Part shown: positions 1,763-9,623 of the stretch, piece after piece
How the letters are laid out: each line of letters starts with the position of its first letter
Numbering within the stretch: position 1 is the stretch's first letter
Virus genome (UHGV): UHGV-1950618
Reading direction: 5' to 3' (one strand)
Origin: a virus
Length of the DNA stretch: 15,356 nt
Position numbers and translations under genes: made by a program
The notes under the pieces: model-generated
Seen by the model: the letters and a program-made list of their open reading frames with translations, nothing else
Told to the model about the DNA's origin: nothing
Databases searched by the model: none

Positions 1763-1831
1763 AATTAACCACCTTTCTGTAAAAAAGGCAGTGTAAAAAG
1801 TGTGTTATTTCGGTGACTATTTTAAGAAGAA

Positions 1832-1848
1832 AGGGGCATTCTGCCCCT
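1832..1848 (-). terminator. intrinsic terminator closing the accessory operon
   Basis: Perfect 7-bp stem AGGGGCA/TGCCCCT with 3-nt loop, 5 nt after the stop at 1854-1856; on the minus strand followed by UUCUUCUUAAAAU. Confidence 0.6.
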
Positions 1849-1853
1849 CTCTT

Positions 1854-4171: not shown

Positions 4172-4785
4172 GCATCTTCCTCCAGGCGCGCTATTTCTTC
4201 TTTCAATACGCGAGTTTTCGCCAGTTCCTGCGCCATCTCGGTTCTAATGATTTCAGTTTCTCTTGTTGCGCGGTCTGAATTACCTTGCACCTGATTTAAT
4301 TTTTCTTTGGCCCTTTCAATATCCTCGCGGATCGCATCGCGAGATTCCTTTGCCTCTGCTAGTTTCTGCGCATTGGACTTAACGCCTTTTATTTTCTTAT
4401 TCCCATCATCAATATCTTTCGCCGCACGAGCTAACTTACGCGCCAATGATTTCTGAAATGATGATGCGCCTTTATTAAATAAAGCAGCCAGTGATTGCCC
4501 TAAAGCCATCAGCGTTTTAACTGGCTTGAAAGGAACAATTTTTCCGTTCAGTTTTACACCAGAAATATCACCAGTATCATTAACCTGAACGTCCATCGTC
4601 TGCTCATCGATTCCGATAAGGGTAAACGTGCGCGTCATGATCCCGTCTTTCTTCCTGCCATTACTGGCGGGGATCACCCTCGCTATCTTGTAGCCTCCTT
4701 TACCGATTTCTTTGACGAGTTTTGCCAGCCCCTTTTCGTTTAACTCATCATAATTAAGAAGAACATAATTAGACTTATTTGACAT
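4168..4785 (-). CDS. 205-aa protein paralogous to a segment of the 650-aa protein (Hdf-like); start re-assigned to the internal ATG
   Basis: The track starts at a TTG (4809), but an ATG at 4785-4783 is preceded by a perfect AAGGAG 6 nt upstream. GKGGYKIARVIPASNG and SLAALFNKGASSFQKSLARKLARAAKD parallel SIGGAIIGRVRRVANI and VCQALSNLIERNSAKFKKAKERQDKMK in the 650-aa protein. C-terminal coiled coil. Confidence 0.5.
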   Translation of the reverse strand: MSNKSNYVLLNYDELNEKGLAKLVKEIGKGGYKIARVIPASNGRKKDGIMTRTFTLIGIDEQTMDVQVNDTGDISGVKLNGKIVPFKPVKTLMALGQSLAALFNKGASSFQKSLARKLARAAKDIDDGNKKIKGVKSNAQKLAEAKESRDAIREDIERAKEKLNQVQGNSDRATRETEIIRTEMAQELAKTRVLKEEIARLEEDA

Positions 4786-5221
4786 TCCAGTCTCCTTCAC
4801 ACTTTTCAATCATAAACTGACGTTCTATGCAGTCATTGATAGGGAAAATGCGATAAAGCGGATTCAGGCGGCAATTACCGTTAGTCAATGTGACCTTTAG
4901 ATCCCACTTCGCTGGCTCAAGATATTTCGTGTCGATGAGCAAATATTCTTCTCTCTCACCGCGTTTTGACGCGTCAACTGGTCTGGTTTTCCCCGAAATA
5001 ACCACAGATGGATTTTTCAAGTCCTGCAACCAATATTCGATTTGTGCATTGCTTACCCAGCTTCGTTTAACGCGAAGCGACACAGGAAACGCTATAGCAG
5101 ACTCTTTCACTACAGCTTCGCCAATGCTCAAAATATCAACACTCTTGCGACGAAATAAGAAACGGTCAATAACGGCAACAAATGCCATGATAAAAATGAA
5201 ATAATTTCCAAAGTCACCCAT
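4775..5221 (-). CDS. 148-aa protein with one N-terminal transmembrane helix; candidate holin regulator (antiholin/LydB-like by position)
   Basis: TAATG stop/start overlap with the upstream holin-like gene. Hydrophobic segment NYFIFIMAFVAVIDRFLF at aa 6-23 followed by a Cys-containing soluble domain; no lysozyme or coiled-coil spanin signature. Confidence 0.45.
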   Translation of the reverse strand: MGDFGNYFIFIMAFVAVIDRFLFRRKSVDILSIGEAVVKESAIAFPVSLRVKRSWVSNAQIEYWLQDLKNPSVVISGKTRPVDASKRGEREEYLLIDTKYLEPAKWDLKVTLTNGNCRLNPLYRIFPINDCIERQFMIEKCEGDWNVK

Positions 5222-5547
5222 TACTTCTCTCCACCTTTTCCCCCACTCGCTATTACGCTTAAGAGATTCAAGACGTTACTAGCTCTGGACTTCAAGCCCT
5301 GTAAAATTTCACTTCCGTTGTTACTGGCAATCAGAACAACGCAGTAAATGATGCCTTCCGGCCATTCATAGCTATCAGCCACCCAAAACCCCGCAAGCCC
5401 GGCAGTTACCGCAGTAAACAATTCACTCGCGAGGTTGAGCAGTGACGCAGAAATGCGCCCGTCTCTAACTCCGAGAAGGAATACGCCGGTTCCACTCAGC
5501 AGGGATGTTATGACTGCTACAGCCAGATTTTCATAATCTGCAAACAT
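5221..5547 (-). CDS. 108-aa three-TM membrane protein, class I holin-like (LydA-like by position)
   Basis: Three hydrophobic helices (aa ~8-27, 36-57, 65-85) and a charged C-terminal tail ending KGGEK; ATG preceded by GGAGGGG. First gene after a ~460-bp spacer. Confidence 0.5.
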   Translation of the reverse strand: MFADYENLAVAVITSLLSGTGVFLLGVRDGRISASLLNLASELFTAVTAGLAGFWVADSYEWPEGIIYCVVLIASNNGSEILQGLKSRASNVLNLLSVIASGGKGGEK

Positions 5548-5859
5548 ACCCCTCCAGAAATGACGTTTAACGCGGCTTCAACTTATCCAGTTTGTTATTT
5601 CCCGACTAAATGCCATTCACACAAAATGGATGCATATGATGGCCCGGTGGTCCGTAAACCTCGTCACTCAGAGCGTGGAGGATGCCAAATTCGCGTATCA
5701 ACAAAATGGTCCAAACACGGCTTTAAAGAGAAATACGCTTGAATGCGCAAGATGTGAGCTGATTCTTGAGGACAAAATGATGACATGTGAGTCTTCACAA
5801 GCGTCATTCAGTGAATATAATGCCCCCCTCTCAGATACCACTAACTGAGTGTTCATTTT

Positions 5860-5893
5860 GCCCGCCGTCATTGACTGGACGGCGGCTTTTTTG
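5860..5893 (+). terminator. plus-strand intrinsic terminator with no convincing plus-strand gene upstream
   Basis: 8-bp GC stem CCGCCGTC/GACGGCGG (5862-5869 with 5878-5885), 8-nt loop, then C plus TTTTTT (5887-5892). Confidence 0.7.
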
Positions 5894-5942
5894 TACCAAA
5901 GGATTGTATTACTAAAAAAGGTCACAAAAGCACTCACTAATA

Positions 5943-5965
5943 AAGCCCTCAACAAAAGAGGGCTT
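5943..5965 (-). terminator. candidate terminator downstream of the tail-fibre assembly gene
   Basis: 8-bp stem AAGCCCTC/GAGGGCTT with 7-nt loop, 43 nt after the tfa stop; on the minus strand followed by UAUUAGUGAGUGCUUUUGUGACCUUUUUU (interrupted U tract). Confidence 0.5.
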
Positions 5966-6007
5966 GAAATATCAAAAAAGCAGTGCTGATTGGATTGTTA
6001 TGATTGT

Positions 6008-6430
6008 TTATGCAGGCATCTCAGGCCATGAGATATCTGCATCAACAGAAGTGTCAACTCTATTAAGAAGAACTCTATACCTCTTTAACTTTGTCAACAT
6101 TTCTATTTCCTCATCAGTGGCAATATCCATATCAACAGCATCCTGAAGCGTTGATATTTTTATGCTCACATCATTCATAAGACTACTTTTGGTGTTTTCA
6201 GCAATGCTGACTCTATCCTCTAAGCTCATAGGTTGTGGGTCAGATAACATTGGATAACCATCGCCATTTGCAATTATTATTTTCCCATTGCCATACCCTG
6301 ATAACAATTCATCATATAAGTCATCAGGTATATGTACAGCATCGGACGGCCATGAACCGTTTTTATCGTAATCTTCTTTTAGTCTATCGTCGTAGAAACC
6401 ACCAGTATCTTTGCTGTAATACTTTGCCAT
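6008..6430 (-). CDS. tfa: tail fibre assembly chaperone (Tfa / P2 gpG / P1 U family)
   Basis: C-terminus KLKRYRVLLNRVDTSVDADISWPEMPA matches the conserved Tfa C-terminal signature (KYRVLLNRVDTS...WP). Lies directly downstream of the tail fibre gene; AT-rich. Confidence 0.85.
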   Translation of the reverse strand: MAKYYSKDTGGFYDDRLKEDYDKNGSWPSDAVHIPDDLYDELLSGYGNGKIIIANGDGYPMLSDPQPMSLEDRVSIAENTKSSLMNDVSIKISTLQDAVDMDIATDEEIEMLTKLKRYRVLLNRVDTSVDADISWPEMPA

Positions 6431-6461: not shown

Positions 6462-9089
6462 TTAATACCCATAAGCAACATACTGTGCATATACTTTATC
6501 AGTAGAGCTACTTTTTACTGTAAAACCAGTGGCTGAGTTGTTGTATGTATAAAGAATTGCATTAACAGCATTCCCGCTATTAGGTGAAATCACAACTACC
6601 GCACACGCCTCAGGAAAAGCAGTCGGAAATTTAACTACGCTTCCTGGAGTAACAGCCGCTATAATCCCCCACTGCATCATCACCTTAGTTGATGTATCCT
6701 TATGCCATCCATGAATGTTGGCATATGCTGTGTTTTTAGCCTGATATTTCGTGTTGAAATTACTATAGTTACCAGGGGTAATCTGACCAGCGGCAGATAA
6801 ATTCCCCATAACCCTTACATGACCATCAGCACGTCCTAATTCTACGCGACCATCACCGCCATCTATCTTTAATGGAGTGTAAACGACATCACCATTAACA
6901 TTTTGCCCAGTGGTTGATATCTGGAAACTATATCCAGTATTAGTTATTAGGAATCCATAGTTATTATTATAAGTTAGGCGTATAGCATTTTGGCTGCTGG
7001 ATATAATTTCACCGGTAACAGTACCACCTGTTGTTGGTAACGCACCAACATGACTTGCCGTTAATGTGATATCTGCAGAACCATCAAACTTAACACCGTT
7101 GATTGTGCGGGCTGTTTGCAGTTTTGTAGCGGTTGCAGCATTACCTGTTGTGTTCTGGTTACCGGCAATGTTCACACCCGGCAGGTTGATATTGGCGCTG
7201 CCATCAAATGCCACCCCGCCGATTGTGCGTGCCGTCTGAAGTTTTGTTGCGGTTGCAGCATTACCGGTTGTGCTCTGATTACCTGTTTTATTAACGCCCG
7301 GCAGGTCGATATTGGCGGTGCCATCAAATGCCACCCCGCCGATCGTTCGGGCCATCTTGAGCTTTGTGGCAGTATCTGCGTTTCCCGTCAAATTACCTGT
7401 AATGCCACCACTAACTGTTACCCCATTACCGATGGACACCAACCCGGTTCTTAAATTTATAGCAAAAGGTCTTAATGGGCCGATGTCACCATTTTCTCCC
7501 TCACCTTCATTTGTCGGGATAAGATGAAGATATTCCTCGGATCTCCTGAAGATAAGGCCAAAGTCCTGGTTAAATATTCGAAGGGCATTTATTGTGCCAA
7601 TTTTTAGCTGCCCCCCCATTGTGTCGCCAGAACGCTGAACTGCGTTACCAGCTTGAGAAGCAATATCCGTTAAGCCAAGATCTTCAGGGGTCAGAGTAAT
7701 ATCTGCCGACCCATCAAATGCCACACCGTTAATCTTTCTGGCTGTTTTTAATTTCGTCGCAGTATCGGCGTTCCCGGTCAGCGTACCAGTGATCCCCGCG
7801 CTGAAAGTCTGGCGTGCACTCCAGGTATTAGCTGTGCTCAACAGGGGGAGCTTTTCTCCGCTGGTTCCGAGTTCTCTTAAACCAAGGTATTGGATAACAG
7901 CCAGTGTGCTTGTTTTAGCAAGAATATCGCGACCGACTGACGTTAAATCAGTCTGGGCTACAGTGTCTGTTCCGGTAAAGTACGGTAATTTATTTGCCCC
8001 CGTCGCCAGGTCAGCGAGCGCGGTTAAGGTTGCGTCGAGAGGCTGCTTACCTGCCAGGGCATTTGTCATTGTAGCCGCAAAGTTCGGGTCATTGCCCAGC
8101 GCCGCAGCAAGCTCATTAAGAGTATCAAGAGCTTCTGGTGATGAGCCGACCAATGCAGAAATAGCGGCACGAACATAAGCGGTTGTTGCAATCTGAGTGT
8201 TGTTCGTACCTTGTGACGCTGTAGGCGCTGTTGGCACCCCTGTAAATGCCGGGCTTAATAACGGTGCTTTAAGAGCTAAAGCAGCATTAATCGTCTGGCT
8301 AAACTGAGGATCATTGTTAATTGCATCTGCAATTTTTTTCAGCGTATCCAACGCTGAAGGAGAACCATCAATAAGGGCGGTTATTGCGGCCTGAACAAAG
8401 GCAGTGTTTGCGATTTGTGTACTGTTTGTACCTTGTTCCGGAGTTGGAGATTTAGGTATACCAATAAACTCCGGGCTATCAACCGGAGCTTTTAGTTTGT
8501 TTAACGTGCTGATAGCAAGAGGTGTTGCGGCTTTATATTCTTCGTCACTATCCAAAGCACTGGAAAACTCAACACCAACAGCACGATTAGCACGATATTC
8601 AGTGCTAATCATATCTGCGGTAACGGCTTGAGCATTGTCAGGCACGATCACGCGGCATAGCTCAATCTGGTTAGATGCTATTTCCTCATCAACGAGAGCA
8701 ATAATTCTCGCTGCGCTAATATCCGATGAGCTATCTACCTGGCTGGTTTTCACTCCATGTTCGTAATTAGCTTCAAGAACGATGATTGTCGTTACACCAG
8801 CTTCTACAGGAACAAGAACATCACTGACTTGCTGCACGGATATCTGACATTTACCCACGTCAATTGAAGCCGCCCCTCTTCCCTCTGTTTTCTCGGATGT
8901 AATACGCACAAACAGACCATCCCCTGGCACCGGTTCAAACCCACAGTACACTCCGGGCAGAACGATATTTTTCATCTTCCTGTTTAGAGCTTCGGTGCTA
9001 TACAGCTCAAAGTATTGCATGTCTGCAATTAGTGGAGCGGAAATGTCCGAAGATAAGGTGACAATATTCTTTACTTTATCTGCGCACAT
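6462..9089 (-). CDS. tail fibre protein (875 aa)
   Basis: Characteristic fibre repeats: two ~75-aa units (PxxSPxFxG.P..P....GTN.TQIA.TA.V.AAI.AL..SP.ALDTL...A.A..NDP.F) and four ~40-aa units (TGNA.TATKL.TAR.I.GV.FDGSA.I.L). ATG start 2 nt after the upstream stop. Followed by tfa. Confidence 0.9.
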   Translation of the reverse strand: MCADKVKNIVTLSSDISAPLIADMQYFELYSTEALNRKMKNIVLPGVYCGFEPVPGDGLFVRITSEKTEGRGAASIDVGKCQISVQQVSDVLVPVEAGVTTIIVLEANYEHGVKTSQVDSSSDISAARIIALVDEEIASNQIELCRVIVPDNAQAVTADMISTEYRANRAVGVEFSSALDSDEEYKAATPLAISTLNKLKAPVDSPEFIGIPKSPTPEQGTNSTQIANTAFVQAAITALIDGSPSALDTLKKIADAINNDPQFSQTINAALALKAPLLSPAFTGVPTAPTASQGTNNTQIATTAYVRAAISALVGSSPEALDTLNELAAALGNDPNFAATMTNALAGKQPLDATLTALADLATGANKLPYFTGTDTVAQTDLTSVGRDILAKTSTLAVIQYLGLRELGTSGEKLPLLSTANTWSARQTFSAGITGTLTGNADTATKLKTARKINGVAFDGSADITLTPEDLGLTDIASQAGNAVQRSGDTMGGQLKIGTINALRIFNQDFGLIFRRSEEYLHLIPTNEGEGENGDIGPLRPFAINLRTGLVSIGNGVTVSGGITGNLTGNADTATKLKMARTIGGVAFDGTANIDLPGVNKTGNQSTTGNAATATKLQTARTIGGVAFDGSANINLPGVNIAGNQNTTGNAATATKLQTARTINGVKFDGSADITLTASHVGALPTTGGTVTGEIISSSQNAIRLTYNNNYGFLITNTGYSFQISTTGQNVNGDVVYTPLKIDGGDGRVELGRADGHVRVMGNLSAAGQITPGNYSNFNTKYQAKNTAYANIHGWHKDTSTKVMMQWGIIAAVTPGSVVKFPTAFPEACAVVVISPNSGNAVNAILYTYNNSATGFTVKSSSTDKVYAQYVAYGY
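7050..7440 (-). repeat. three tandem ~120-nt coding repeats inside the tail fibre gene, plus a fourth dispersed copy at ~7680-7799
   Basis: Near-identical DNA units are visible at ~7081-7200, 7201-7320 and 7321-7440. GVAFDG is encoded at 7320-7337 and again at 7710-7727 (checked by reverse-complement translation). Confidence 0.85.
8040..8495 (-). repeat. two consecutive ~75-aa fibre repeats (coding)
   Basis: aa ~199-272 and 273-350 of the fibre share the same motif order; the corresponding DNA at ~8161-8280 and ~8341-8460 is visibly similar. Confidence 0.7.
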
Positions 9090-9538: not shown

Positions 9539-9623
9539 ACGAACATAGCCCCTTTAACAAGCAATAAATCGAAGGGCAGTATGTTCAGTTTGTGATTTCC
9601 AGTGGTCTTTTGTTTTGAGAAAT

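Follow-up and report, generated by a model that had tools for sequence, protein, structure and literature searches.

The closest described systems to the locus reported here are the cin/C-segment switches of the phage-plasmids P1 and D6, in whose annotations the interval from lydA to U contains cin, cixL, S' and U'. In both, cin is located on the opposite strand to lydA and starts ~100 bp away from it; cixL, S'v and U' follow, and then come the convergent genes U and S. In D6-like plasmids, the region of tail-fibre inversion is known to vary more than any other part (PMC6799933). The P1-like plasmids pSvP1, pTZ20_1P and pJIE250-3 are published cases of truncated cin genes and of C segments that are lost or incomplete; they have P1/P7-type backbones with largely IS-mediated changes, and in them a remnant invertase ORF that retains its N-terminal part is accompanied by an incomplete C segment and by a host range presumed to be fixed (PMC6906374).

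Here we describe a spacer of 460 bp (positions 5548–6007) in a 15,356-nt stretch of viral DNA from the genome UHGV-1950618. We refer to the whole stretch as the window, and positions throughout this text are those of the window unless another sequence is named. Homology to annotated relatives identifies the window as part of a D6-like (P1-family) E. coli phage-plasmid. We consider it highly likely that the spacer is the composite scar of a lost DNA invertase and of alternative tail-fibre genes in a P1/D6-type phage-plasmid, left by ordinary genome decay, and that the terminator within it formerly ended the lost cassette. The locus resembles the P1 and D6 switches in its position between lydA and S-U, in its homologous cin 5' sequence, and in a cixR site within S that is identical to that of D6; unlike those switches, it keeps one cix site, one Sv-U cassette and no invertase, an arrangement in which inversion would be impossible. 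With pSvP1, pTZ20_1P and pJIE250-3 it shares the three traits named above, and it differs from them in its D6-type backbone, in a spacer in which no IS was found, and in a deletion variant that has spread to at least 15 sequenced E. coli plasmids. The system itself is known, and the locus is its relic in a lineage for which it had not been annotated. The features of the locus are collected in Table 1.

Table 1 Features of the spacer and its surroundings, with the evidence for each
Feature	Position	Strand	Evidence
lydA-type holin gene, 108 aa	5221–5547	-	ORF; weak Pfam Phage_holin_3_3 (LydA) match; D6 orf30 homologue
Weak sigma-70-like site, ATGACT-16-CATAAT, 9/12	5510–5537	+	Promoter scan; inside the first lydA codons
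Candidate late promoter: AAATAACAAACTG (5600–5588), GA, -10-like TAAGTT (5585–5580)	5580–5600	-	~33 nt upstream of the lydA ATG
cin (serine DNA invertase) pseudogene relic, homologue of codons 1–36	5636–5780	+	Alignments, BLASTP
Deletion junction (5780/5781), cin relic to U' 3' end	5778–5783		BLAST and base-level sequence context
Last 10 nt of the deleted U', including stop TGA (5788–5790)	5781–5790	+	Aligns with L005 5007–5016; likewise with L011 (stop 264–266) and L017
Near-consensus sigma-70 promoter-like site, TTCACA-16-TATAAT, 11/12	5794–5821	+	Between U' stop and terminator
Small hairpin CTCAG-N10-CTGAG	5830–5849	+	Fold; kept in all haplotypes
'Orphan' intrinsic terminator, formerly of the S'v-U' cassette	5860–5893	+	Consensus scan, RNAfold, position in intact relatives
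Hairpin AAGCCCTC-N7-GAGGGCTT then UAUUAGUG	5943–5965	-	Fold; 42 nt past the tfa stop
U-type tail-fibre assembly gene (tfa), 140 aa	6008–6430	-	Pfam Caudo_TAP, E = 1.6e-34; 'tail fiber assembly protein' in the annotation of relatives
Orphan cixR crossover site, TCCAATACCTTGGTTTAAGA	7875–7894	-	Identical to annotated D6 cixR; inside S (6462–9089), at the constant/variable boundary

Results and discussion

The spacer and its gene neighbours

All long ORFs of the window are on the minus strand, and the spacer separates two of them, lydA and tfa. The preliminary description of this DNA had placed a non-coding gap of ~460 bp here, and the ORF limits at 5547 and 6008 bear this out. The lydA gene is 91.6% identical at the nucleotide level to D6 orf30 (annotated as 'holin, similar to P1 lydA') and is the first gene of a lydA-lydB-hdf-darA operon, the 'accessory operon' of that description; homologues of lydB, hdf, darA, ddrA and ddrB are found downstream of it. 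On the other side of the spacer, the tail-fibre gene S and an R-like gene lie upstream of tfa. The nearest database records are non-mobilizable E. coli plasmids of 89–95 kb. A PLSDB search with 5400–6150 as the query returned 106 plasmids, most of which match over the lydA end only, with 90–95% identity. RefSeq/PGAP annotates no plus-strand gene in the spacer in any of 15 plasmids.

A decayed cin gene beside lydA

The first half of the spacer contains the 5' part of an invertase gene on the plus strand. By BLASTP, residues 26–50 of a 72-aa ORF (5630–5848) are identical at 19 of 25 positions (76%) to residues 11–35 of Cin-type invertases. At the DNA level, 5689–5780 matches the 5' ends of recombinase genes in hundreds of plasmids with 80–89% identity, and from 5548 to ~5610 the window is identical to NZ_AP027414 (L002), a close relative that has an intact cin. 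The window sequence differs from a working cin as follows: First, the Shine-Dalgarno sequence has changed from AAGGGGAGG to AAAATGGAT. Second, codons 2–5 have been swapped for an unrelated stretch of ~50 nt (net +38). Third, one extra base just past the RVST codons shifts the frame by +1 and separates RVST, which is read in the frame of ORF 5560–5742, from the downstream cin frame, leaving the catalytic motif Y/I-R-V-S-T-x-x-Q out of frame. At last, the homology to cin ends at 5780, after codon 36. In P1 the inversion enhancer comprises cin nt 19–90, and the relic covers the homologous stretch.

A full resolvase domain followed by a C-terminal HTH_7 domain, which together define an invertase of this type, is encoded by neither of the small plus-strand ORFs of the spacer. 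The 72-aa and 60-aa plus-strand ORFs match neither Pfam Resolvase nor HTH_7, whereas the complete invertase of the relative L005 (see below) gives both; Pfam alone returned no family for these two ORFs, and the similarity to Cin was seen by pairwise protein comparison. The preliminary description had set the small plus-strand ORFs aside as lacking recognisable features: they are indeed not live genes, but the Cin-like residues of the 72-aa ORF had been missed. It had also rightly considered the spacer too short for an invertase gene and had suspected cin/cix remnants, which are now found as the cin 5' relic in the spacer and one orphan cix site in S. The weak sigma-70-like site inside the first lydA codons (Table 1) could, speculatively, be the surviving cin promoter.

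The ~50-nt replacement is located at 5639–5688 (plus strand) and is present in deletion-type loci only, that is, in loci with the junction described below. It has no match in D6, in P1, in the intact relatives or in the other sequences fetched.

Relatives with an intact U'

We found three relatives in which U' is intact, namely the plasmid NZ_CP159120 (L005), an IMG/VR contig that starts inside U' (L011), and a metagenome contig that is 98% identical to L005 3911–5700 (L017). The gene order in NZ_CP159120 is lydA, a partial cin (1118–1258), a full invertase gene on the minus strand (1471–2052), a cix-like site (2120–2139), an S'v-type ORF, U', a spacer, U and S. The invertase contains Resolvase and HTH_7 domains and is 61% identical to D6 Cin. 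U' is a 188-aa Caudo_TAP gene on the plus strand (4450–5016), and the 220-bp spacer after it leads to the convergent U gene (5237–5659). The cix-like site at 2120–2139 and cixR in S (7479–7498) are in inverted orientation.

U, the inter-tfa spacer, both terminators within it and cixR are 86–98% identical between the window and these relatives, and NZ_CP159120 also has a cin relic beside lydA; unlike the window, the relatives keep the minus-strand second invertase, a second cix site, S'v and U'. Read as a record of gene order, the arrangement in NZ_CP159120 shows that replacement of the whole switch module would have preceded its loss in the window lineage. NZ_CP159120 is evidently not the direct ancestor of this lineage, because its cin relic, which comprises ~56 codons, has neither the 50-nt replacement nor the frameshift seen in the window, and because its spacer is 86% identical to that of the window. 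Within L005 1118–2139, the cin relic and the second, complete invertase gene are on opposite strands, with the invertase gene beside the cix site in a Mu/p15B-like and not a P1-like orientation.

A deletion junction shared by a plasmid group

Comparison with NZ_CP159120 by BLAST splits the window within the spacer: 5400–5775 aligns with L005 880–1218, and 5774–6500 aligns with L005 5000–5729, where the aligned stretch begins 16 nt ahead of the stop codon of the 188-aa Caudo_TAP gene. Read base by base, the window continues from ...GAGGACAAAATGA, which is cin, directly into TGACATGTGAGTC..., which begins with the last 10 nt of U'. Similar 10-mers, GAGGACAAAA in cin and GAAGACAAAA in U', are located 3–4 nt to the left of both breakpoints. 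Since comparison with both parents revealed no exact microhomology at the join, the junction is likely the product of illegitimate recombination.

The junction is identical in all nine deletion-type loci that were read base by base (the window, L001, L004, L010 and L012–L016). A 101-nt probe across it matched 15 of 5426 complete E. coli genomes with 95–100% identity, every match being on a plasmid of 89–95.5 kb; these plasmids came from humans, dogs, chicken, a wild bird, a monkey and wastewater. Despite the identical junction, the deletion-type spacers fall into two haplotypes that are ~86% identical. Because one and the same junction occurs in the nine loci and is shared by 15 of the 5426 genomes, the data point to a single deletion event, followed by spread and recombination. 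The right half of the spacer (5775–6010) was found in 16 plasmids among the 5426 complete E. coli genomes, one of them being NZ_CP159120, and had no match in E. coli complete genomes outside these plasmids, in 50,697 phage records or in one-genome-per-species contigs; its matches in IMG/VR and metagenomes belong to the same lineage. A D6-like E. coli phage-plasmid group that numbers at least 15 sequenced plasmids, with human, pet, poultry, wildlife and wastewater sources, would thus have lost its phase-variable tail fibres by one deletion, and the 5780/5781 junction offers a sequence marker for recognising the deletion-type group.

A tail-fibre switch predicted to be locked

An invertible segment of this kind has two crossover sites in inverted orientation and two convergent Sv-U cassettes. 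A search of the window for cix-like sites at ≤3 mismatches returned cixR in S and no other (0 expected by chance), whereas NZ_CP159120 has two, and the minus-strand S-U and 10 nt of U' are what is left of the two cassettes. Since neither a partner cix site nor an invertase accompanies cixR, the tail fibre is predicted to be locked in one receptor specificity. An invertase supplied in trans, for example by a co-resident prophage, would find one cix site on the window stretch.

The length of S varies among close relatives, from 875 aa in the window (6462–9089, minus strand) to 1000 aa in L005 (5691–8693), 1169 aa in L001 (7063–10572) and 1423 aa in L011 (939–5210). BLAST revealed many internally repeated segments in the variable part of S, a pattern that suggests expansion and contraction of repeat modules.

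Two face-to-face terminators

The inter-tfa spacer that remains after the junction (~220 bp) contains two terminators face to face. On the plus strand, the consensus scan found CCGCCGTC-ATTGACTG-GACGGCGG then CTTTTTTG at 5862–5885, with eight base pairs, seven of them G-C; the stem pairs 5862–5869 with 5878–5885 across an 8-nt loop and is followed by a T6 run (5887–5892). This site ranks first of the five scan sites in 3 kb, where shuffles lead to an expectation of 2.2 ± 1.6. RNAfold extends the stem to 5860–5886 with one bulge (-16.1 kcal/mol), and the 70-nt context of the terminator has a fold z of -2.9 against shuffles. Read on the minus strand, the hairpin runs into GCAAAAUGAAC, and the scan reports the site on the plus strand only. 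The terminator is one-directional, because the minus strand has no U tract after the hairpin; the G+C-rich stem-loop and U tract that make up an intrinsic terminator are found together on the plus strand and not on the minus strand.

In the window, no intact plus-strand gene precedes the terminator, which is located 72 nt past the relic U' stop, and in L005, L011 and L017 its homologue lies ~70 nt after the stop of the intact U'. The homologue in these relatives has a perfect 10-bp stem and a run of T6–T7 (T7 in L005), with -23.3 kcal/mol. The hairpin is kept in all 12 loci, and the 50 nt that follow it are only ~67% identical between haplotypes. On this positional evidence, the terminator is one that used to end the lost S'v-U' cassette, and its former owner is U' and not cin. 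A strong plus-strand terminator without a live plus-strand gene upstream had been noted in the preliminary description, with a relic of a lost gene among the options offered; the scan, RNAfold and the RefSeq annotation of the 15 plasmids support the former, and the presence of both the cin 5' relic and the U' 3' end in the spacer decides in favour of the latter. The hairpin presumably still terminates transcription today. The sole present role that we propose for it would be to stop stray plus-strand transcripts, for which the surviving cin promoter region and the sigma-70-like site 5794–5821 are possible origins, before they run antisense into tfa and S.

The second hairpin, on the minus strand (5965–5943), has a free energy of -13.7 kcal/mol and a context z of -3.5 and is invariant in all 12 loci. 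It failed the T-run rule of the scan, its U tract being weak, and is probably the terminator of the S-U tail-fibre operon. P1 has one shared hairpin in a 28-bp gap between U' and U, in contrast to the 220-bp gap with two separate face-to-face hairpins of the window lineage. Because the two cix sites enclose the U'/U spacer completely, the spacer flips together with the segment, and from this geometry each hairpin would be expected to end one version of the operon, the plus-strand hairpin Sc-S'v-U' and the minus-strand hairpin Sc-Sv-U.

A proposed two-step origin of the scar

The spacer would be explained by two events, the order of which is set by parsimony. First, the resident cin would have been truncated as a different cassette replaced it; the incoming cassette would have consisted of an opposite-strand invertase, a cix site, S'v, U', the 220-bp spacer, U and Sv, a state that appears to survive in NZ_CP159120. 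Second, one deletion of ~3.8 kb would have fused the cin relic, at codon 36, with the final 10 nt of U', at the cost of the working invertase gene, of cixL and S'v, and of almost the entire U'. The leftovers in the spacer would be the lydA late promoter, what remains of the 5' part of cin in decayed form, the stop codon of U', and the former U'/U spacer, in which two terminators face each other. Of these, the plus-strand terminator would have ended the S'v-U' cassette and, after inversion, the whole tail-fibre operon, while the minus-strand hairpin 5965–5943 would end the S-U cassette, which is now permanently expressed in this model. The scar reading accounts for an unannotated gap of 460 bp and cautions against calling the 72-codon ORF a gene; knowledge of invertible segments or terminators is unchanged by it.

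Alternative readings of the spacer

The relic model leaves the sigma-70-like site between the U' stop and the terminator without explanation. This site is the best promoter-like match in 3 kb, and its hexamers are unchanged in 11 of the 12 loci (L011 has TTCAAA), while the 9 nt past the -10 hexamer vary. It is conceivable, though in our judgement improbable, that the promoter-like site, the hairpin at 5830–5849, a U-rich linker and the terminator form an sRNA gene of ~65 nt, of the 3'-UTR type with its own promoter, which was originally nested behind U' and has been kept for its own function. Hfq-type sRNAs that derive from 3'-UTRs and have their own promoter include MicL and DapZ. The candidate unit in the window resembles such sRNAs in its layout, in which a stop codon is closely followed by a promoter, and then come a short hairpin, a U-rich linker and a terminator that also serves the gene upstream; it differs from them in showing no covariation and in having no Rfam family. 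The predicted RNA, with its 5' hairpin, A/U-rich linker and intrinsic terminator, includes the segment with the fold z of -2.9 given above, and the promoter-hairpin-terminator unit came through the deletion intact. If the unit were such a gene, an RNA of ~65 nt would be made constitutively from the plasmid prophage, and the unit would for this reason have outlasted the switch.

Four observations stand against the sRNA gene. When 5400–6200 was scanned against Rfam (E ≤ 10), no family came close to its threshold over the terminator unit, the best plus-strand matches having 15 bits against gathering scores of 50. None of the 15 predicted pairs of the hairpins shows a compensatory change over 7 haplotypes; the hairpin at 5830–5849 has one change, from U-A to U-G. 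The loci compared are close relatives in two main haplotypes, so that conservation carries little weight. Furthermore, the putative element has been found in one small plasmid group only. The antisense or small RNA that the preliminary description had mentioned as another option therefore has the architecture in its favour, with neither an Rfam family nor compensatory changes to go with it. The same scan returned a sub-threshold match to IS009 inside tfa (6045–6200, minus strand; 31 bits against a gathering score of 117), which probably reflects tfa homology in the seed sequences of that family and not an RNA gene.

It is very unlikely that the plus-strand hairpin is a bidirectional terminator or insulator serving the minus-strand tail-fibre operon by blocking read-through from tfa into lydA. 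The hairpin does sit between two minus-strand operons, and a back-up would be useful given the weak U tract of the tfa-proximal hairpin 5965–5943; however, the minus-strand sequence after it (GCAAAAUGAAC) holds no U tract, the scan calls it on the plus strand only, and its position in the intact relatives is already accounted for by U'. The earlier suggestion of insulation against convergent read-through fails for want of the same U tract. Hardly credible at all is a live small gene (a moron) that owns the terminator in the form of the 72-codon ORF, which has an ATG start, is uninterrupted, stops 12 nt short of the hairpin and is conserved among deletion-type loci, but which is a chimera of the 50-nt insert, cin codons read first out of frame and then in frame, and read-through of the U' 3' flank, has a mutated cin Shine-Dalgarno sequence ahead of it, belongs to no Pfam family, is annotated by RefSeq/PGAP in none of the 15 plasmids, and misses the catalytic RVST motif in its frame.

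A candidate D6-type late promoter upstream of lydA

The late promoter of the lydA operon had been expected within the spacer, and a candidate is found there at 5600–5580. The 13-mer AAATNACAAACTG has two exact copies in the window, both on the minus strand just upstream of the start of an operon, one before lydA and the other before the R-like gene. The latter copy (9598–9586) is followed after 2 nt by CATACT (to 9578), and a third, degenerate copy with TACACT (1810–1790, minus strand) precedes the ddrB-like gene. In D6 (L008/L009), the motif occurs six times at ≤1 mismatch against ~0.9 expected, and five of the six copies precede lydA, R, prt, upfC and mat on the coding strand (31531, 38135, 25241, 56918 and 72120, all on the minus strand), each with a -10-like hexamer after 2 nt. 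The general form of the motif is AAATNACA(A/C)ACT(G/T), 2 nt and a -10-like hexamer. We define the D6-type late-promoter-like motif in the present analysis as AAATNACAAACTG, 2 nt and a -10-like hexamer, located on the coding strand 30–150 nt ahead of a late operon; so defined, it is present at 5600–5580 before lydA and at 9598–9578 before the R-like gene.

The annotated late promoters of P1, LPdar (AAGTTACTT-N4-TACCAT) and LPs (AAGTTACTT-N4-TACAAT), have a different form, from which we read the P1-type, Lpa-dependent promoter as a 9-bp inverted repeat AAGTTACTT centred near -22, 4 nt, and a -10 hexamer TAnnAT. A search for the P1 motif, as the preliminary description had suggested, came out negative for the region upstream of lydA, where AAGTTACTT-N4-TAnnAT is absent; the sole match in the window at ≤2 mismatches is inside S, and such matches are expected by chance. 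Judging from these motif comparisons, the late promoter of lydA is probably the D6-type motif at 5600–5580 and not a sigma-70 or P1-type site, and we infer that it would depend on an Lpa homologue. The motif may be the late-promoter signature of D6-type phages, and as a candidate distinct from that of P1 it could aid operon annotation in the family.

D6 also has one perfect P1-type site (71096–71114, plus strand). In the window, a hairpin (GGGGCAGAATGCCCC then TTTCTTCTT; 1820–1850, minus strand) separates the ddrA-like from the ddrB-like gene, and the third late-promoter-like motif follows it directly; the two together suggest a terminator-promoter pair that splits the dar operon.
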